DNA of 64,000 bases. Origin: Squalus acanthias. Lineage: Eukaryota. The notes beneath the pieces were generated by a model. The model was not told the origin of the DNA. It made no database searches and saw only the letters and a program-made list of their open reading frames with translations. Location of the stretch: positions 16,370,001-16,434,000 of the forward strand of contig CM059432.1 of NCBI GenBank assembly GCA_030390025.1, given 5' to 3'. Below, one piece after another: positions 25,760-64,000 of the stretch. How positions within the stretch are numbered: the first letter of the stretch is position 1; the number at the start of each line of letters is the position of its first letter. A program made the position numbers and the translations under genes.

Positions 25760-27730
25760 ACAGGAAAATAACTAAAGAAAAAGGGTGGGACTAACAAATC
25801 TAGAGCTCCCTGGTTGTCAAGGGACATACAGGTTAGGATAAAAAAAAAAGGGAGGCTTATGACAGATACCGAGGGCTCAATACTGCAGAAACTCTAGAGG
25901 AGTATAGAAAGTGCAGGGGTGCAATTAAAAAGGAAATTAGGAAAGCAAAGAGAGAGCATGAAAAAATGTTGGCAAGTAAAATCAAGGAAAACACAAAGAT
26001 GTTTTATAAATACATTAAGAGCAAGAGGATAACTAAAGAAAGAGTAGGGCCTATTAGAGACTATAAAGGTAATCTGTGTGTGGAGGCGGATGGTTCTTAA
26101 TGTATACTTTGCGTCTGTTTTCACAAAAGAGCGGGCGATGCAGACATTGCAATCAGGGAGGAGTGTGACATATTAGATGAAATAAACATAGTGAGAGAGG
26201 AAGTACTAAGGGGCTTAACAGCTTTGAAAGTGGATAAATCCCCAGACCCAGATGAAATGTATCCCAGGCTGTTAAGAGAAGCAAAGAAGCAAAAGAGGAA
26301 ATAGCAGAGGCTCTGACCATCATTTTCCAATCCTCTCTGGCTACAGGTGTGGTGCCAGAGGACTGGAGGACTGCTAACGTTGTACCTTTGTTTAAAAAGG
26401 GAGAAAAAGATAGACCGAGTAATTACAGGTCAGTCAGCCTAACCTCGGTGGTGGGAAAATTATTGGAAAAAGTTCTGAGAGACAGGATAAATCTTCATTT
26501 AGAAAGACACGTGTCTGACTAACTTGATTGAATTGAGGAGGTAACAAGGAGGGTCGATGAGGGTAGTGCGTTTGATGTAGTGTATATGGATTTTAGCAAG
26601 GCTTTTGATAAGGTCCCACATGGCAGACTGGTCACGAAAGTGAAAGCCCATGGGATCTAGGGCAAAGTGGCAAGTTGGATCCAAAATTGGCTCAGAGGCA
26701 GGAAGCAAAGGGTAATGGTTGATGGGTGTTTTTGTGACTGGAAGGCTGTTTCCAGTGGAGCCCCGCAGGGCTCAGTATAGGTCCCTTGATTTTTGTGGTA
26801 TATATCAATGATTTAGACTTGAATGTAGGGGGTATGATTAAGAAGTTTGCAGGTGATACTAAAATCGTCTGTGTGGTTGATAATGAAGAAGAAAGCTGTA
26901 GACTGCAGGAAGATATCAATAAACAGGTCCAGTGGGCAAAACAGTGGCAAATGGAATTCAATCCGGAGAAGTGTGAGGTAATGCATTTGGGGAGGGCTAA
27001 CAAGGCAAGGGAATACACATTAAATGAGAAGTGTAGAGAAACAAAGGGACCTTGAGTGCAGGTCCACAGATCTCTAAAGGTAGCAGGCCAAGTAGATAAG
27101 GTGATTAAAAAGGCATACGGAATACTTGCCTTTATTAGCCGAGGCATAGAATACAAGAGCAGGGAGGTTATGCTTGAACTGTATAAAACACTAGTTAGGC
27201 CTCAGCTAGAGTACTGCATGCAGTTCTGGTCACCACATTACAGGAAAGATGTGATTGCACTAAAGAGGGTACAGAAGAGATTTACGAGGATGTTGCCTGG
27301 ACTGGAGAATTTTAGCGATGAGGAAAGATTGGATAGGCTGGGTTTATTTTCTTTGGAACAGAGGAGGCTGCGGGGAGACCTTATTGAGGTGTATAAAATT
27401 ATGAGGGGCCTCGATAGAGTGGATAGGAAGGACCTATTTCCCTTAGCAGAGAGGTCAACATACAGGGGTATAGATTTAAAGTAATTGGTAGGAGGTTTAG
27501 AGGGGATTTGATTGGAAATTTTGATGGGGGTCTGGAACTCACTGCCTGAAAGGGTGGTAGAGGCAGAAACCCTCACCACATTTAAAAAGTACTTGGATGA
27601 CCCGTAACCTACAGGGCTAAGGACCAAGAGCTGGAAAGTGGGATTAGGCTGGATAGCTCTTTGTCTGCCGGCACGGACACGATGGGCCGAAATGGCCTCC
27701 TTCCGTGCTGTAAATTTCTATGATTCTATG
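25760..27730 (+). mobile_element. Decayed 5'-truncated CR1
   Basis: Broken RT peptides (YINDLD, KFAGDTK, LVRPQLEYC); 3' TTCTATGATTCTATG. Confidence 0.9.
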
Positions 27731-28194: not shown

Positions 28195-31100
28195 GCGACG
28201 CTGAGAACGTCGTGGATACCACGTTTAGCGAGTTGGTCACACCGCAGGCAAAGGGTGTACAGGCAGGAAGTGAATGGGTGACCACCAGGCAGAGTAAGAG
28301 GTGCAGGCAGGTAGTGCAAGGGTCCCCTGTGGCCATCCCCCTCTCAAACAGATATACCACTTTGGATACTGTTGGGGGATGACTTATCAGGGGAAGGCAG
28401 CAACAGCCAACTTCCTGGCACCATGGGTGGCTCTGCTGCACAGGCTGGGAGGAAAAAGTGTGGAAGAGCTATAGTGATAGGGGATTCAATTGTAAGGGGA
28501 ATAGATAGGCTTTTCTGCGGCCGCAAACGAGACTCCAGGATGGCGTGTTGCCTCCCTGGTGCAAGGGTCAAGGACGTCTCGGAGCGGCTACAGAACATTT
28601 TGGAGGGGAAGGGCGAACAGCCAGTTGTTGTGGTGCACATAGGCATCAACGATATCGGTAAAAAACGGGATGAGGTCCTAAAAGCAGAATATAGGGAGTT
28701 AGAAGGTAAATTAAAAAATAGGACCTCAAATATAGTAATCTCAGGATTGCTACCAGTGCCACGTGCTAGTCAGAGTAGAAATAGGAGGATATTTCAAATG
28801 AATACGTGGCTAGAGGAATGGTGCAAGGGGGAGGGATTCAAATTCCTTGGACATTGGAACCGGTTCTGGGGGAGGTGGGACCAGTACAAACGGGACGGTC
28901 TGCACCTGGGCAGGGCTGGGACTGATGTCCTAGGGGGAGTGTTTGCGAGTGCTGTTGGGGAGGGTTTAAACTAAAGTGGCAGGGGGTTGGGAACCTGAGC
29001 AGGGAGACAGAGGAAAGGGAAACAAGGATAAAAGCAAAAGACAGGAAGGAGAAAAACAAAAGTAGAAGGCAAAGAACTCAATGATTTAAATCAAACATGG
29101 TCACAGTAAATAATAATTCATATAGGTCTGAGAGCGTTAAAAAAACAAGCCTGAAGGCTTTGTGTCTTAATGCAAGGAGCATTCGGAACAAGGTGGATGA
29201 ATTAGCTGCGCAAATAGAGGTAAATGAATACGATTTGATTGGGATTACAGAAACATGGCTCCAGGGTGGCCAAGGCTGGGAACTCAACATCCAGGGGTAT
29301 TCAATATTTAGGAAACATAGGCAAAAAAGAAAGGGAGGTGGGGTAGCATTGCTGGTTAAAGAGGGGATTAACACAATTGAAAGGAAGGATATTAGCTCTG
29401 ATGATGCAGAATCTGTATGGGTAGAACTGAGAAATAACAAGGGGCAGAAAACGTTAGTGGGAGTGGTATATAGACCTCCAAACAGTAATACGGAGGTTGG
29501 GGACGTCATTAAAAGGGAAATTAGAGAAGCATGCAGTAAGGGCACAGCAGTCATCATGGGTGACTTTAATTTACATATAGATTGGGCTAACCAAATTAGT
29601 AAAAATACTGTGGAGGAGGAATTCCTAGAATGTTTACAGGATGGTTTCCTGGAACAATATGTCGAGGAACCAACCAGAGATCAGGCAATCTTAGACTGGG
29701 TATTATATAACGAGAAAGGATTAATTAGCAATCTTGTTGTACGAGGCCCCTTGGGTCAGAGTGATCATAATATGATAGAATTCTTCATTAGGATGGAGAG
29801 TGAAGTAGTTGAATCAGAGACTAGGGTCCTGAATTTAAATAAAGGAAACTACGATGGTATGAGGCGCGAATTTGGTAGGATTGATTGGGGAATGTCACTC
29901 AAAGGGTTGATGGTGGATAGGCAATGGCAAACATTCAAAGACTGCATGGATGAACTACAGAATTTGTGCATCCCAGTGTGGCATAAGAATAAAACAAAAA
30001 GGGTGACTCAACCGTGGCTAACAAGGGAAATTAGGGATAGCATAAGATCCAAGGAGAGGGCATATAAATTGGCCAGAAAAAGCGGTAACCCTGAGGATTG
30101 GGAGCAGTTTAGGATTCAACAAAGGAGGACAAAGGGATTAATTAAGAAGCGGAAAATTGAATATGAAAGTAAGCTTGCAGGGAACATAAAAACTGACTGT
30201 AAGAGCTTTTATAGATATGTGAAGAGAAAAAGATTAGTGAAATCAAGTGTAGGTCCCTTGCAGTCAGAAGCGGGGGAAGTTATAATGGGGAACAAAGAAA
30301 TGGCAGACCAATTAAATGCATATTTTGGTTCTGTCTTCACAAAGGAGGACACAAATAACCTCCCAGAGATGCTGGAGAACATACGGTCTGATGAAAGGGA
30401 GGAACTGAAAGAAATCAGTATTTGCAGGGAAATGGTGTTAGGGAAATTGACGGAATTGAAGGCCGATAAATCCCCAGGGCCTGATAATCTACATCCTAGG
30501 GTACTTAAGGAAGTGGCCCTAGAAATAGTAGATGCATTGCTGATCATCTTCCAACATTCGATGGAATCTGGAACTGTACCCATGGATTGGAGGGTAGCTA
30601 ATGTTACCCCACTATTCAAAAAGGGTGGTAGAGAGAAAGTGGGGAATTACAGACCGGTAAGCCTGACATCGGTAGTGGGGAAAATGCTAGAGTCCATTAT
30701 AAAGGATGTAATAGCAGAGCACTTGAAAAACAGTGACAGGATCGGACAAAGTCAACATGGATTTACAAAAGGTAAATCGTGCTTGACTAATCTACTGGAA
30801 TTTTTTGAGGATGTAACTGGGAAAATAGATAAGGGAGAAGCAGTAGATGTGGTGTATTTGGACTTTCAAAAGGCTTTCGATAAGGTCCCGCATAAGAGAT
30901 TAGCGTGTAAAGTTAAGGCACATGGGATTGGGGGCAAGGTATTGACTTGGATAGAGAACTGGTTGGCGGACAGAAAGCAGAGAGTAGGAATTAATGGGTC
31001 TTTTTCCGAGTGGCAGGCAGTGACCAGTGGGGTACTGCAGGGTTCGGTCCTTGGACCCCAGCTATTCACAATATACATTAATGATCTGGATAAGGGAACT

Positions 31101-32028
31101 AAATGTAATATCTCCAAGTTTGCAGATGACACAAAGCTGGGTGGGTGTGTGTGCTCCGAGGAGGATACTGAGAAACTCCAGGATGATTTGGACAGGTTGG
31201 GTGAGTGGGCAGAAGCGTGGCAGATGCAATATAACGTGGATAAATGCGAGGTTATCCACTTTGGTGTCAAAAACAGAAAGGCAGACTATTATCTGAATGG
31301 CAATAGATTGGGAGAAGGGGAAGTGCAACGAGACCTGGGTGTCCTTGTGCACCAGTCGCTGAAGGTAAGCATGCAGGTGCAGCAGGCGGTGAAGAAGGCA
31401 AATGGTATGTTGGCCTTCATAGCGAAAGGGTTTGAGTATAGGAACAGGGATGTCCTGCTGCAGTTGTACAGGACCTTGGTGAGACCACACCTTGAGTACT
31501 GTGTGCAGTTTTGGTCGCCTTATCTGAGGAAGGATGTTCTTGCCATGGAAGGAGTTCAGCGAAGATTCACAAGGCTGATACCTGGGATGGCAGGAATGAC
31601 ATATGAGGAGAGATTGGGTCGATTGGGCTTATACTCGCTGGAGTATAGAAGAATGAGAGGGGATCTCATCGAAACATATAAAATTCTGACAGGTCTGGAC
31701 AAACTAGATGCAGGAAGAATGTTCCCGATGGTTGGAGAGTCCAGAGCCGGGAGTCATAATCTAAGGATGGGGGGTAGGCCATTTAGGACAGAGATGAGGA
31801 AGAATTTCTTCGCCCAGAGAGTGGTGAACCTGTGGAATTCTCTACCACAAAAGGTAGTTGAGGCCAAGTCTTTAAATATATTCAAGAATGAGTTAGATAT
31901 ATTTCTTAAAGCTAAAGGTATCAAGGGATATGGGGAGTTTGGATGATCAGCCATGATCTCATCGAATGGCGGAGCAGGCTCGAGGGGCTGAATGGCCTAC
32001 TCCTGCTCCTATCTTCTATGTTTCTATG
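28195..32028 (+). mobile_element. 5'-truncated CR1 LINE: partial ORF1 (SGNH esterase), full ORF2 (APE endonuclease + RT), 3' UTR ending in (TTTCTATG)-type repeats
   Basis: ORF1 motifs VIGDSIVR, HIGIND and DGLHL, with an apparent frameshift near 28375. ORF2 motifs [37 protein letters not shown]1-type 3' end. Confidence 0.95.
29097..31946 (+). CDS. CR1 ORF2 endonuclease/reverse transcriptase (949 aa)
   Basis: Uninterrupted ORF with APE and RT motifs. The usual GVPQG reads GVLQG here. Confidence 0.9.
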   Translation: MVTVNNNSYRSESVKKTSLKALCLNARSIRNKVDELAAQIEVNEYDLIGITETWLQGGQGWELNIQGYSIFRKHRQKRKGGGVALLVKEGINTIERKDISSDDAESVWVELRNNKGQKTLVGVVYRPPNSNTEVGDVIKREIREACSKGTAVIMGDFNLHIDWANQISKNTVEEEFLECLQDGFLEQYVEEPTRDQAILDWVLYNEKGLISNLVVRGPLGQSDHNMIEFFIRMESEVVESETRVLNLNKGNYDGMRREFGRIDWGMSLKGLMVDRQWQTFKDCMDELQNLCIPVWHKNKTKRVTQPWLTREIRDSIRSKERAYKLARKSGNPEDWEQFRIQQRRTKGLIKKRKIEYESKLAGNIKTDCKSFYRYVKRKRLVKSSVGPLQSEAGEVIMGNKEMADQLNAYFGSVFTKEDTNNLPEMLENIRSDEREELKEISICREMVLGKLTELKADKSPGPDNLHPRVLKEVALEIVDALLIIFQHSMESGTVPMDWRVANVTPLFKKGGREKVGNYRPVSLTSVVGKMLESIIKDVIAEHLKNSDRIGQSQHGFTKGKSCLTNLLEFFEDVTGKIDKGEAVDVVYLDFQKAFDKVPHKRLACKVKAHGIGGKVLTWIENWLADRKQRVGINGSFSEWQAVTSGVLQGSVLGPQLFTIYINDLDKGTKCNISKFADDTKLGGCVCSEEDTEKLQDDLDRLGEWAEAWQMQYNVDKCEVIHFGVKNRKADYYLNGNRLGEGEVQRDLGVLVHQSLKVSMQVQQAVKKANGMLAFIAKGFEYRNRDVLLQLYRTLVRPHLEYCVQFWSPYLRKDVLAMEGVQRRFTRLIPGMAGMTYEERLGRLGLYSLEYRRMRGDLIETYKILTGLDKLDAGRMFPMVGESRAGSHNLRMGGRPFRTEMRKNFFAQRVVNLWNSLPQKVVEAKSLNIFKNELDIFLKAKGIKGYGEFG

Positions 32029-58934: not shown

Positions 58935-60100
58935 TAAATTTTGTATGTTTCAATTAGATCACCTCTCATTCTTCTAATGTTGGGAAATGTTGGTGTTCAG
59001 AGGGACCTGGGTGTCCTTGTACACGAATCACTGAAAGTTAACATGCAGGTACAGCAAGCAATTAGGAAAGCTCTAGAGAATATAGGCCTAGTCTACTCAG
59101 TCTGTCCTCATAGGACAATCCCCCATCCCAGGAACCAGTCTGGTGAACCTTCGTTGCACTCCCTCTATGGCAAGTGTATCCTTCCTTCGGAAAGGAGACC
59201 AAAACTGTACACAATACTCCAGGTGTGGTCTCACCCTATATAATTGCAGTAAGACGTCTTTACTCTTATACTCAAATCCTGTTGTAATAAAGGCCAACAT
59301 ACCATTTGCTTTCCTAATTGCTTGCTGTACCTGCATGTTAACTTTCAGTGATTCGTGTACAAGGACACCCAGGTCCCTCTGAACACCAACATTTCCCAAT
59401 CTCTCACCATTTAAAAAATACTCTGCTTTTCTATTTTTCCTACCAAAGTGGATAACTTCACATTTCTCCACTTAATATTCCATTTGCCATGTTCTTGCCC
59501 ACTCACTTAGCCTGTCTATATCCCCTTGAAGCCTCTTTGCATCCTCCTCACTACTTACATTCCCACCCAGCTTTGTATCATCAGCAAACTTGGATATATT
59601 ACATTTGGTCCCCTCATCCAAATCATTGATATAGAATGTGAATAGCTGAGGCCCAAGCACTGATCCTTGCGGTACCCCACTAGTTACAGCATGCCAACCC
59701 AAAAATGGCCCGTTTATTCCTACTCTCTGTTTTCTGTCCATTGACCAATCCTCAATCCATGCTAGTATATTACCCCCAATCCCATGAGCCCTAATTTTGT
59801 TCAATAATGTGTGGCACCTTATCGAATGCCTTCTGAAAATCCAAATACATCACATCCACTGGTTCCCCCTTATCTATTCTGATAGTTACAAGCTCAAAAA
59901 ACTCTAACAGATTTGTCAAACATGATTTCCCTTTCATAAATCCGTGTTGACTCAGCCCAATCCTATTATTATTTTCTAAGTGCCCTGTTACCACGTCCTT
60001 AATAATAGAGTCTAGCATGTTCCCTACTACTGATGTCAGGCTAACTGGTCTGTATTTCCCCGTTTTCTCTCTCCCTCCTTTCTTAAATAGTGGGGTTACA
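58935..60100 (-). mobile_element. CR1 internal fragment containing a 92-bp inverted templated insertion
   Basis: RT peptides on the minus strand; 58980-59071 is the reverse complement of 59308-59399. Confidence 0.88.
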
Positions 60101-60292
60101 TTTATATAAGAAAGAAAACACTTACATTTATCTAGCTCCTTTCGCGTTTTCGAGATGTCCCAAAGTGCTTCACAGCCAGTTAATTATTTTTGAAGTGCAG
60201 GCACTGTTAGGCATAAGCGGCAGCCAATTTGCACACAGCAAGGTCCCATAAACTAAAACTAGAAAATTAAAAAGTAATATAAGGGTTAAGTC

Positions 60293-61240
60293 ATGGCAGT
60301 AGAGCTCGGACCTGTGTCATGCTCCTCCTGTAACATGTGGGAAATCAGGGACGCTTCCTGTGTCCCTGACAACCATGTGTGCGGGAAGTGTGTCCAGCTG
60401 CAGCTCATGTGGGACCGCATGACGGCCCTTGAGCTGCGGATGGACTCACTTTGGAGCATCCACGATTCTGAGAGGGTTGTGGATAACACATTTAGTGAGT
60501 TGGTCACACCGCAGGTTAAGGCCAGCGTAGATAGTACATGGGTGACCAAAAGGCAGAGCAAGGGCAGGAAGGTAGTGCAGAAATCCCCTGGGGTTGTCTC
60601 CCTTAGCAACAGGTTCACCGCCTTAGGTGCTGTTGTCGGGGGGGATGACTCATCGGGGGAAGGCACCAGCAGCCAGGCTCATGGCACCATGACTGGCTCT
60701 GTTGCAAAGAAGGGAGGGAAAAAGAGTGGCAGGGCTATAGTAATAGGGGATTCGATTGTAAGGGGAATAGATAGGGGTTTCTGTGGTCGCGACCGAGACT
60801 CCAGGATGGTATGTTGCCTCCCCGGTGCAAGGGTCAAGGATGTCTCGGCGCGGGTGCAGAACATTCTGGAGGGGGAGGGGGAACAGCCAGTTGTCGTGAT
60901 ACATGTTGGTACCAACGACGTAGCTAAAAAAAGGGAAGAGGTCCTACAAGTAGAATTTAGGGAGTTAGGAGCCAAGCTAAAAAGTAGGACCTCGAAGGTA
61001 GTAATCTCTGGATTACTACCAGTGCCACGTGCTAGTAAGAGTACTGAGAACAGGATAGTTAGGCTAAATACGTGGCTTGAGCAGTGGTGTAAGAGGGAGG
61101 GTTTTAAATTTTTGAGGCATTGGAACCAGTTTTGTGGTAGGTGTGACCTATACAAAAGGGACGGTCTACACCTGTGCAAAGATGGAACTGATGTTCTCGG
61201 GGTAATTTTTGATAAAGCAGTTCGGGAGCATTTAAACTAG
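60293..61240 (+). CDS. CR1 ORF1: CxxC..CxxC zinc finger, leucine zipper and SGNH esterase (315 aa)
   Basis: CSSC...CGKC followed by heptad-spaced hydrophobic residues; GDSIVR, HVGTND and DGLHL motifs. Confidence 0.92.
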   Translation: MAVELGPVSCSSCNMWEIRDASCVPDNHVCGKCVQLQLMWDRMTALELRMDSLWSIHDSERVVDNTFSELVTPQVKASVDSTWVTKRQSKGRKVVQKSPGVVSLSNRFTALGAVVGGDDSSGEGTSSQAHGTMTGSVAKKGGKKSGRAIVIGDSIVRGIDRGFCGRDRDSRMVCCLPGARVKDVSARVQNILEGEGEQPVVVIHVGTNDVAKKREEVLQVEFRELGAKLKSRTSKVVISGLLPVPRASKSTENRIVRLNTWLEQWCKREGFKFLRHWNQFCGRCDLYKRDGLHLCKDGTDVLGVIFDKAVREHLN

Positions 61241-64000
61241 TATGGCAGGGGGCTAGAAACCTATGTAGTGAAATAGAGGAAAGTGAAAGGCAGACAGAAA
61301 TAAATGGTAAAAGAGTGAGGAACAAAAAACAAAGGGCCAAACTAAATCATAAAAAATGTGAGCATAAAAAAAGCCTGAGGGTTTTATACCTTAATGCGAG
61401 AAGCATCAGGAACAAGGTAGATGAATTAGCTGTGGAAATAGAGGTTAATAATTATGATCTAATTGGGATTACGGAAACATGGTTGCAGGGTGAGCAGGGC
61501 TGGGAGCTTAACATACAGGGGTATTCAGTATTTAGGAAGGATCGACAAAAAAGAAAGGGAGGAGGGGTAGCATTGCTGGTAAAAGAAGGGATAAATGCAA
61601 TTGAAAGGAAGGATATTAACTCAGTTAATACAGAATCTATATGGGTGGAGCTAAGAAATAGCGAGGGGCGAAAAACATTAATAGGAGTGGTATATAGGCC
61701 TCCAAATAGTAAAATAGAGGTTGGGGAGGGCATCACGAGGGAAATTAGAGAAGCGTGCAATAAGAGCACAGCTGTCATCATAGGTGACTTTAACTTACAT
61801 ATAGATTGGAATAGCCTAATCAGTAAAAATAATGAGGAGGAGGAATTCCTTGAGTGTTTAAGGGATGGTTATCTGGATCAATATGTCGAGGAACCAACTC
61901 GGGAACAGGCTATATTGGACTGGGTACTGTGCAATGAGAAGGGACTAATTAGTAATCTTGTTGTACGGGGACCCTTGGGTCAGAGCGATCATAACATGAT
62001 CGATTTCTCACTCGAAATGGAGAGCGAAGAAATTGACTCAGATACTAAGGTCCTGAATTTAAACAAGGGGAATTATGATGCCATTAGACGGGAACTGAGT
62101 AGGTCTGATTGGACAACGTTCCTGGGAGGACTGGAGGTAGATAAACAATGGCAAGCATTTAAAGATAGAATGACAAAATTGCAAAAATTGTTTATACCAA
62201 TCTGGCATAAAAGGAAATCTAAAAAGGTGACTCAACCGTGGATAACAGGGGAAATTAGAGACAGCATAAAATCCAAAGATAGGGCGTATAAAATAGCCAA
62301 AAAAAGCGCCAGAGCGGAAGATTGGGAACAGTTTAAGATAGAACAAAGGAGGACAAAGGGCTTAATCAAGAGGGGCAAAATAGCTTACGAAAGCAAGCTG
62401 GCGGAAAATATAAAAACTAACTCCAAAAGCTTTTATAAGTATATCAAGAGGAAAAGACTGGTGAAAACCAAAGTTGGCCCATTGCAGTCAGATACGGGGG
62501 AATATATAACGGGAAATAAGGAAATGGCAGACCAACTAAATGCATACTTTGGGTCAGTCTTTACGAAGGAAGACACAAAAAACCTCCCTGGGATATCGGG
62601 AAAAATAGGGACATTTGCAAAGGAGGAACTGACGCAAGTCAATATCTCTAAGGATATGGTGTTAAGGAAGCTAAAGGGATTGAAGGCGGACAAATCCCCA
62701 GGGCCTGATAACATGCATCCTAGGGTGCTGAAGGAGGTGGCCCTAGAGATAGCGGATGCACTAAGTATGATTTTTCAGAATTCATTAGACTCGGGAACAG
62801 TGCCCATGGATTGGAGGGTAGCTAACGTTACCCCACTATTCAAAAAGGGGGGTAGGCAAAAAGCAGGTAATTACAGACCTGTAAGCCTTACATCAGTTGT
62901 GGGCAAAATGCTGGAGTCCATCATTAAGGATGAAATAGCGGAGCACTTAGCAAATGGGGACAGGATAGGACAGAGTCAACATGGATTTACAAAGGGTAAA
63001 TCGTGCTTGACTAATCTATTGGAATTTTTTGAGGGAGTAACTGGTAAAATAGATGGGGGAGAGCCAGTAGATGTGGTGTACCTGGACTTCCAAAAGGCCT
63101 TCGATAAGGTCCCACATAAAAGATTAGCAGGGAAAATTGAAGCTCATGGGATAAAGGGGAAAGTATTGACGTGGATAGAGAACTGGCTGTCAGATAGAAA
63201 ACAGAGAGTTGGAATAAACGGCTCATTTTCTGAATGGCAGGCAGTAACAAGTGGGGTACCACAGGGATCTGTCCTGGGTCCCCAGCTGTTCACAATTTAC
63301 ATTAATGACCTGGATCAGGGAGTCGGATGCAGCATTTCCAAATTTGCAGACGACACTAAACTAGGAGGGGGGGTGGGCTCAGAGGAGGAGACCAGGAAGC
63401 TCCAGAGCGATTTGGACAGACTGGGTGATTGGGCGGATAAATGGCAGATGCACTATAATGTGGACAAGTGCGAAGTTATCCACCTTGGGTGCAGGAACGG
63501 GAGGGCAAATTATTATTTAAATGGCAATAAATTGGGAGAGGGGGAAGTACAGAGAGACCTGGGTGTTCTTGTACACCAGTCACTGAAGGCGAGCATGCAG
63601 GTGCAACAGGCGATCAAGAAGGCAAACGGTATGCTGGCCTTCATAGCAAAAGGGTTGGAATACAGGAACAGGGATACCTTGCTGCAGCTGTACAGGGCAC
63701 TGGTGAGACCACACCTCGAGTACTGTGTACAGTTTTGGTCGCCTCATCTGAGGAAAGATGTTCTTGCCATGGAGGGGGTGCAGCGGCGATTCACCAGGCT
63801 GATACCAGGAATGGCGGGATTGACCTATGAGGAGAGACTATGTAGTTTAGGGATGTACACACTGGAGTTTAGAAGATTGAGAGGGGACCTCATAGAAGTG
63901 TATAAAATTCTGACAGGTCTAGACAGACTAGATGCAGAAGGAATGTTTCCCTTGGCGGGTGAGAACAGAACTAGAGGACATAATTTAAGGATAAGGGCTA
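61231..64000 (+). CDS. CR1 ORF2 frame (partial), in the -1 frame relative to ORF1, lacking an initiating AUG
   Basis: Frame opens after TAA at 61213-61215 and reads FKLVWQG...SLRVLYLNARSIRNK...; the first ATG is at 61996 (SDHNM). Confidence 0.9.

Follow-up and report, generated by a model that had tools for sequence, protein, structure and literature searches.

A conserved slippery heptamer at the ORF1–ORF2 junction of CR1 LINEs points to probable gag-pol-style −1 frameshifting

How ribosomes reach the second open reading frame (ORF2) of a bicistronic long interspersed nuclear element (LINE) is a long-standing open question, and it is raised anew by the DNA described here, a 64,000-nucleotide (nt) stretch of Squalus acanthias (GenBank assembly GCA_030390025.1, contig CM059432.1, positions 16,370,001 to 16,434,000 of the forward strand), which we call the window. 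The last 3.9 kb of the window are occupied by the 5′ part of a CR1 LINE whose ORF2 contains no start codon ahead of the end of its endonuclease domain. For bicistronic elements without long terminal repeats (non-LTR elements), the translation of ORF2 'is not clear' according to PMC3708506. Comparison of the ORF1–ORF2 junction with its relatives suggests that ORF2 is probably reached by −1 ribosomal frameshifting in the style of gag-pol, with two unusual traits, namely a stop codon abutting the slippery heptamer and a G-tract instead of a visible RNA structure. Such a conserved slippery site would be a concrete and directly testable answer to the question.

The element is a recently active CR1-clade LINE. 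As expected of this clade, its ORF1 is of the esterase (SGNH/GDSL) type and its ORF2 encodes an apurinic-type endonuclease followed by a reverse transcriptase. The name CR1, which we take to be the right one, comes from the similarity of the ORF1 and ORF2 proteins (ORF1p and ORF2p) to an alligator protein and to bird-like copies recognised by their ORF2 motifs. Moreover, the available part of PMC13343379 reports no ORF1 type other than the esterase one for vertebrate CR1 and L2. The Pfam matches were Lipase_GDSL_2 (4.4e-11) and OSK (1.3e-8) for ORF1, and Exo_endo_phos (1.4e-9), Exo_endo_phos_2 (1.8e-10) and RVT_1 (1.1e-31) for ORF2. The features of this copy, a member of family A, are the following.

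60293–61240 (+): ORF1, 315 amino acids from the ATG at 60293, TAG included, with a cysteine-rich N-terminus and an SGNH/GDSL esterase domain
61213–61215 (+): TAA closing the ORF2 (−1) frame, five codons 5′ of the heptamer, limiting the two-frame overlap to 61216–61240
61231–61237 (+): slippery heptamer T_TTA_AAC, in the X_XXY_YYZ phase of ORF1
61238–61240 (+): ORF1 stop TAG, directly 3′ of the heptamer
61248–61252 (+): run of five G, starting 10 nt 3′ of the heptamer, candidate stimulator
61231–63999 (+): ORF2 frame from the slip site, endonuclease and reverse transcriptase, continuing past the window end
61996–61998 (+): first ATG of the ORF2 frame, where the endonuclease domain ends

The 3′ end of ORF1 reads GAG CAT TTA AAC TAG, and the heptamer falls into the X_XXY_YYZ phase because the T that ends CAT is also its first base. 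The −1 frame is open from behind the TAA to the end of the window (928 codons). This geometry had been claimed in a first-pass annotation of the window, including the in-phase heptamer abutting the stop, the opening of the ORF2 frame after the TAA and the lack of an ORF2-frame ATG before 61996, past the endonuclease; when both copies of the element in the window were rechecked in the sequence, all of its coordinates were right. The stretch from 61216 to 61995 contains 14 ATGs, none of which (0/14) is in the ORF2 frame. The Exo_endo_phos match covers residues 60–259 of that frame, and the ATG at 61996 falls just after it. With all 14 ATGs out of frame, the first 780 bases (260 codons) of the ORF2 region are free of Met, which may reflect selection against internal starts that yield an ORF2p lacking the endonuclease. 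Family A has the arrangement expected of a frameshift signal, in that ORF2 lies in the −1 frame, overlaps ORF1 and has no start of its own before the endonuclease.

Family A is very young. With a 501-base query around the junction, at least 40 places in the 3.7-Gb genome were about 100% identical over 501 nt, and the junction was identical in all of the copies that were fetched (30/30). ORF1 was intact in 15 of these 30, the ORF2 frame was open over all 590 codons examined in 26, and the first ORF2-frame Met stood at codon 255 from the heptamer, past the endonuclease, in 27; moreover, 14 of the 30 showed 4–11 differences from the window copy in 2,645 nt. The family has spread recently, so complete ORF2 must be expressed, and there must therefore be a route to ORF2 that does not depend on an AUG. 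In addition, sequencing runs labelled with at least six coded organisms contained 72–84% of the sampled words of a 1.7-kb stretch, by which near-identical copies of family A seem to be present in several related species or samples.

As far as a comparison of sequences can tell, we consider it likely that the ORF2 protein of CR1 is made by −1 programmed ribosomal frameshifting. A ribosome translating ORF1 would stand at U_UUA_AAC with tRNA-Leu on UUA and tRNA-Asn on AAC; a minority would slip one base back to UUU and AAA and continue with CUA GUA UGG..., giving an ORF1p–ORF2p fusion, and the majority would stop at the adjoining stop codon, giving free ORF1p. The outcome would be a high ratio of ORF1p to ORF2p, as with gag and gag-pol, and a low frameshift efficiency would be appropriate, given that a LINE requires much less ORF2p than ORF1p. 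UUUAAAC is among the most slippery eukaryotic heptamers, and its basal slip rate may be raised jointly by the G-tract and by slow termination at the adjacent stop. The fusion would presumably be the active form. Its junction is predicted to read ...REHLN|LVWQG..., because with tandem slippage both codons of the heptamer are still read as part of ORF1 before its C is read a second time; the peptide EHL/FKLVWQG in the first-pass annotation was off by the two heptamer codons, and its proposal of an ORF1–ORF2 frameshift fusion is itself supported by the comparisons with other copies.

The same geometry, as had also been claimed, is found in the second copy in the window, which belongs to family B and has these features.

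28315–28974 (+): ORF1 remnant of the decayed copy, ending in GGT TTA AAC TAA
28965–28971 (+): slippery heptamer in the same phase as in family A, with the stop at 28972–28974
28982–28986 (+): run of five G, 10 nt after the heptamer
29082–29084 (+): in-frame TGA, interrupting the ORF2 frame between slip site and endonuclease
29085–31946 (+): ORF2, 953 codons, whose frame is the −1 frame at the heptamer

After the stop TAA the sequence continues with TGGCAGGGGG, in the frame of the ORF2 at 29085–31946. This copy is decayed, because the TGA at 29082–29084, on which the first-pass annotation was silent, stands in the ORF2 frame; it is missing from L036, L058 and L060, family B copies that are intact and open in this frame.

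To what extent is the heptamer retained in the rest of the genome? Four genome samples were drawn without the heptamer as a search term, and these are the ones unbiased for its presence. A 17-base anchor on the DGLHL motif of family B had 1,558 genome matches against none in the control, and among the first 30 loci TTTAAAC was in place in 27, the other three being one base off. A degenerate DGLHLN pattern gave 3,143 matches against 23 in the control; the first 30 loci, from at least five lineages, had TTTAAAC 71 bases from the anchor start in 23 cases, and the other seven comprised six variants with up to three of the seven bases changed and one deletion. A degenerate pattern for the esterase motif CCLPGARV, about 410 bases upstream, had 23,741 matches against 1 in the control, from which it follows that the genome carries tens of thousands of ORF1-bearing CR1 copies. 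Here 20 small regions were taken from the first 22 listed places; three were interrupted by other sequence, and the heptamer was found in 15 of the 17 with a readable ORF1 tail. The fourth sample concerns the old lineage of L074 and L080, two copies that were first taken for a lineage without the heptamer. Its anchor had 166 matches at up to one mismatch (0 in the control), and 20 of the remaining 38 exact matches were read: ten had the heptamer at the expected offset, one had it shifted by a deletion, four were one-base variants and five were rearranged. The lineage has the heptamer, and the first interpretation was ruled out by these 20 further copies. Old copies lose the heptamer at about the rate of dead DNA, and every sampled lineage has it, with a stop behind it and at a constant spacing from the esterase motif DGLHL. 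Furthermore, in the lineages of this genome the −1 frame is closed by a stop 1–5 codons 5′ of the heptamer, so that the overlap of the two frames amounts to only 10–25 nt and includes little beyond the heptamer; in one lineage the stop is nearly at the heptamer (TAG GGC TTT AAA C).

An ungapped line-up from the DGLHL codons to the stop was made of 18 copies (14 of this genome, four of other animals) that were picked for carrying the heptamer, so that its 100% identity among them is by selection and the information lies in the flanks. Immediately before the heptamer stood CAT, GAT, GGT, GCT, ACT or TCT, codons that stand for six amino acids and all end in T; Leu was TTA, one of six possible codons, and Asn was AAC in 18 of 18. 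The third positions of the 23 codons before the heptamer had a pairwise identity of 46%, and those of DGLHL were variable, with GGA, GGG and GGT for Gly and CTA, CTG, CTC, CTT, TTG and TTA for Leu. A heptamer varying freely at its synonymous positions, which the first-pass annotation had regarded as speaking against frameshifting, was not what we found: the preceding wobble, the Leu codon and the Asn wobble were constant and the flanks were near saturation. These comparisons show that the heptamer is conserved at synonymous sites among diverged relatives.

The junction was also followed into other animals. Metagenome contigs scanned with an ORF1p alignment gave 27 loci, most of them cut at the match and six reaching the junction; we take these six to be bird-like CR1, a label recognised from motifs at the ORF2 N-terminus. 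Their ORF1p is 31–35% identical to that of the window, and their junctions are as follows.

L092: TCT TTA AAC TAG, 6–7 bases, GGGGG(G)AAGGGG
L097: GCT TTA AAC TAG, 6–7 bases, GGGGG(G)AAGGGG
L098: GCT TTA AAC TAG, 6–7 bases, GGGGG(G)AAGGGG
L101: GCT TTA AAC TAG, 6–7 bases, GGGGG(G)AAGGGG
L091: decayed, heptamer and stop retained
L111: decayed, heptamer altered

In L092, L097 and L098 the −1 frame is continuous from the heptamer into the endonuclease. Could the heptamer stand at this place by chance, or have been inherited from one ancestor without selection? TTTAAAC is common in the AT-rich window, with 18 occurrences in 64 kb against 11.2 expected from shuffles, which is no overall enrichment, and all lineages do descend from one ancestor. 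The heptamer signal is one of position, phase and conservation, rather than of frequency in the window. Moreover, the seven bases are unchanged where the flanking codons are down to 46–54% identity, and they persist where ORF1p is only 31–35% identical; decayed copies lose the heptamer readily (3/30, 7/30, 2/17 and 9/20 in the four samples), but other copies of every lineage keep it. We therefore regard chance or passive inheritance as very improbable.

Among proteins, a search for homologues of ORF1p gave 123, of which 120 were listed, and the tails of P0001–P0061 and of the alligator protein P0075 were read. A DGxH motif is present in 39 of them, and 36 of the 39 have a tail of 22–28 residues, the other three being two read-across gene models and one truncated protein. 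All 36 full-tailed proteins, from sharks, rays, skates and alligator, end in Leu-Asn, the preceding residues vary, and in 35 of the 36 tails the residue at position −3 is one for which a codon ending in U exists. A search for ORF1–ORF2 fusions among longer proteins gave five matches, three of which are named as unrelated host genes and look like chimeric models. P0035, P0060 and P0121 read ...FKL... over the site, which is TTTAAAC in the −1 frame; these proteins show the same geometry in rays and say nothing on frameshifting itself.

CR1 is usually described as having two closely spaced ORFs, and this description probably goes back to an ATG 5 bases past the stop. At this position, ATG is found in L092, L097 and L091, TCG in L098, TGG in L101 and likewise TGG in the shark families. 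The first ORF2-frame Met is at codon 255 in family A, at codon 44 in family B, and other lineages have it at codons 16–18, 7 and 51. The ORF2-frame AUGs show no conservation, coming and going while the heptamer stays. These data bear on a second explanation, in which ORF2 is translated by termination-reinitiation, or by AUG-independent initiation after ORF1 as in L1, the heptamer is irrelevant to decoding, and the products ORF1p and ORF2p are made separately. It would fit the short distance between stop and start, the ORF2-frame ATG 5 nt past the stop in three of five bird-like copies or 7–51 codons downstream in other lineages, and the precedents of UAAUG coupling in SART1 and AUG-independent translation of L1 ORF2, which are described in the available parts of PMC3708506 and PMC5009743. 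The AUG near the stop is, however, replaced by TGG or TCG in other copies, so that a start codon suited to reinitiation is a lineage-specific feature. Family A has no ORF2-frame start codon at or near its stop: the ATG closest by, at 61242, is out of frame, and a scanning 40S subunit would have to pass 13 more such ATGs to reach the first one in frame. Reinitiation also leaves the phase of the heptamer and its invariance at synonymous sites in all lineages unexplained, and it gives no reason why the frame overlap contains just the heptamer. We hold this explanation to be unlikely, and favour −1 frameshifting at the heptamer.

Downstream of the slip site, the heptamer is followed immediately by the ORF1 stop in 16 of the 18 aligned copies, and in the other two by one further codon and then the stop. 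A run of at least four G starts 8–11 bases past the heptamer in all 18; frameshift stimulators usually begin at this distance. The G-run is the only 3′ feature common to all lineages and is a candidate stimulator. An altogether different, non-recoding role could be assumed for UUUAAAC, the stop and the G-run, with ORF1p needing a C-terminal Leu-Asn and the RNA offering a site for ORF1p or ORF2p. The invariance of Leu-Asn in the proteins would agree with it, as would a G-run conserved without the structure that marks a classic stimulator. A need for Leu-Asn would, however, permit six Leu codons, two Asn codons and any preceding wobble, none of which varies, and an AUG-less ORF2 in the exact −1 frame would still need a route, for which reasons we think this role improbable.

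Tandem ORF1-frame stops (TAG TAA, TAA TAA) were observed past the heptamer in many lineages (loci L087, L143, L157, L149, L140, L150, L153, L156, L082 and L083). In some tandem-stop copies the first stop has become CAA, CAG, TAT or TCG, and ORF1 then ends one codon later; the L074/L080 lineage has TAG TAA and TAA TAA alongside CAA TAA and CAG TAA. The pattern suggests that copies with the stop one codon late once had a tandem pair, of which the first stop is gone. In decayed copies the G-run is of widely varying length and reaches 13–19 G (L064, L066, L128, L135 and L151) against 5–7 in intact copies, which is the behaviour of a hypermutable homopolymer. After it there is often a pentamer, UGGGA or in other lineages AGGGA (L036, L136, L118, L120, L127, L081 and L133); the UGGGA pentamer, downstream of the stop, is not found in the young family A. 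The calicivirus reinitiation motif, which pairs with 18S rRNA, has UGGGA as its core. Contigs from the sequencing runs X1 and X5, whose RNA origin is only guessed, span the junction with few differences and show no skipping joint there. None of the 40 listed variant places falls within 61213–61256 (a further 101 places are unlisted).

Several observations weigh against frameshifting at the heptamer. Besides the selection of the 18 aligned copies for the heptamer, copies of one family are not independent of each other. The tail of P0004 (...EELN) cannot place a U before UUA, and the esterase-type ORF1p of teleosts (P0062–P0120 except P0075) end in ...ET, ...QT and similar, so that the slippery signal is not universal among esterase-bearing LINEs. 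An AUG soon after the stop may permit reinitiation in some lineages, and human L1 ORF2 is translated without an AUG and without frameshifting, as stated in the available parts of PMC3708506 and PMC5009743. The first-pass annotation had suggested folding the 3′ sequence for a stimulator, and no RNA structure better than shuffles emerged: the 63–100 bases 3′ of the site in families A and B had z values of 0.92, 0.30, 0.33 and −1.15 relative to shuffled sequences. There was no common minimum-energy fold among the 18 copies, with or without G-quadruplexes allowed (a G-quadruplex was predicted in five of the 18), and Rfam gave no matches at E values up to 1. In the RNAalifold consensus of three bird-like copies the G-run pairs with CCNGGCCUC, with no compensatory pairs. 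Folding, the 18-copy comparison, Rfam and covariation revealed no hairpin 3′ of the site, pseudoknots not having been searched.

A wider reading would extend the frameshift to all CR1 sensu stricto, from cartilaginous fishes to birds and crocodilians. The polymerase would then be made only as an uncleaved ORF1p–ORF2p fusion, by way of an ancient U_UUA_AAC, an abutting and often tandem stop, and an unstructured G-tract as linear stimulator. The G-tract might act without a pseudoknot, through the ribosome itself or through a bound protein, possibly ORF1p in a feedback. We put this forward tentatively and rather doubt that it holds in full; if true, it would bring the logic of gag-pol to the predominant LINE class of bird and reptile genomes, and a new type of eukaryotic frameshift stimulator with it.

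Among known systems, the ORF1a/1b site of the nidoviruses has in coronaviruses a slippery heptamer identical to that of CR1, U_UUA_AAC, and in equine arteritis virus G_UUA_AAC. Nidovirus sites have a pseudoknot 5–7 nt downstream and an ORF1a stop that is not adjacent, whereas the CR1 stop is. In human L1 the spacer between ORF1 and ORF2 is 63 nt. As is proposed for CR1, human L1 makes ORF2p at a low level from the RNA of ORF1 and independently of an AUG, but it has no slippery site and its ORF1p and ORF2p are separate. A further likeness is to gag-pol of retroviruses and animal LTR retrotransposons, where an X_XXY_YYZ heptamer is placed close to where the upstream gene ends, the polymerase is start-less in the −1 frame and a fusion is made at a low set ratio, as is proposed here for CR1. 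Unlike these, CR1 is a non-LTR element without a protease to cut the fusion, its upstream protein is an esterase-type ORF1p and not Gag, its stop abuts the heptamer, and no hairpin was found, with pseudoknots outside the search. The available part of Atkins 2016 (PMC5009743) places pol in the −1 frame in 28 of 51 animal LTR elements, many with classical heptamers. It discusses HeT-A, TART and L1, and in that part this recoding review has no CR1 and no LINE with a classical heptamer.

In Dictyostelium, TRE5-A and TRE3-A are endonuclease-type LINEs with overlapping ORF1 and ORF2 like CR1, from another LINE clade and host, and a figure legend in PMC5911963 says that they need a −1 frameshift for ORF2; the idea of frameshifting therefore already exists for LINEs. 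In SART1 of Bombyx, with its UAAUG coupling, and in calicivirus reinitiation, ORF2 begins at the ORF1 stop of a bicistronic RNA, as in CR1, and the portion of PMC3708506 at hand reports that the efficiency of SART1 coupling is modulated by downstream structure. Unlike SART1, family A has no ORF2-frame AUG near the stop, and the conserved element is a heptamer upstream of it. The same portion describes 2A-like peptides at the ORF2 N-terminus of some CR1, L2 and Rex1 elements, which mostly lack ORF1. These peptides represent another form of recoding at this position and in these clades, and imply that ribosomes enter ORF2 from upstream coding sequence; no NPGP motif was seen by eye in the ORF2 N-terminus of the window, and no motif search was made.

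Our full-text literature search found no paper connecting a slippery heptamer with a CR1 or L2 LINE, and an earlier remark in the original chicken and turtle CR1 papers is possible. The words frameshift, overlap and slippery do not occur in the available parts of a 2026 survey of the CR1 group (PMC13343379), a 2014 study of ORF1 in the Jockey superfamily (PMC4120745) and Suh et al. 2014, nor do frameshift and overlap in that of the chicken Dicer paper. If the frameshift is real, an ORF1p–ORF2p fusion would change the picture of ribonucleoprotein assembly, cis-preference and ORF1p:ORF2p stoichiometry in CR1, and vertebrates would have a cell-encoded, highly repeated case of −1 frameshifting without an obvious structured stimulator. 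For annotation, a simple rule for CR1 ORF2 would be to join the frames at TTTAAAC.

The window also contains 5′-truncated reverse transcriptase fragments of other CR1-like families, at 59097–60183 on the − strand and at 26738–27484 on the + strand. They directly adjoin the 5′ ends of both full-length copies, so that the region is a cluster of LINE insertions. Among the ORF1p homologues, those of cyprinids, characins and loaches (P0062–P0105) end in ...SLRAET, ...AQT or ...NNAKV; without ...LN, these LINE families must join ORF1 and ORF2 differently. Furthermore, P0009, P0024, P0058, P0059, P0099, P0121 and P0122 are CR1 ORF1 sequences that stand under unrelated names in public records, such as 40S ribosomal protein S24 isoform, transmembrane protein 204 isoforms, ABHD14A-like and hydroxyacid oxidase 2 isoform. 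Another such record is an SGNH hydrolase filed as Pseudomonas aeruginosa, on a 4-kb contig. These misnamed ORF1 records look like chimeric gene models or host contamination.

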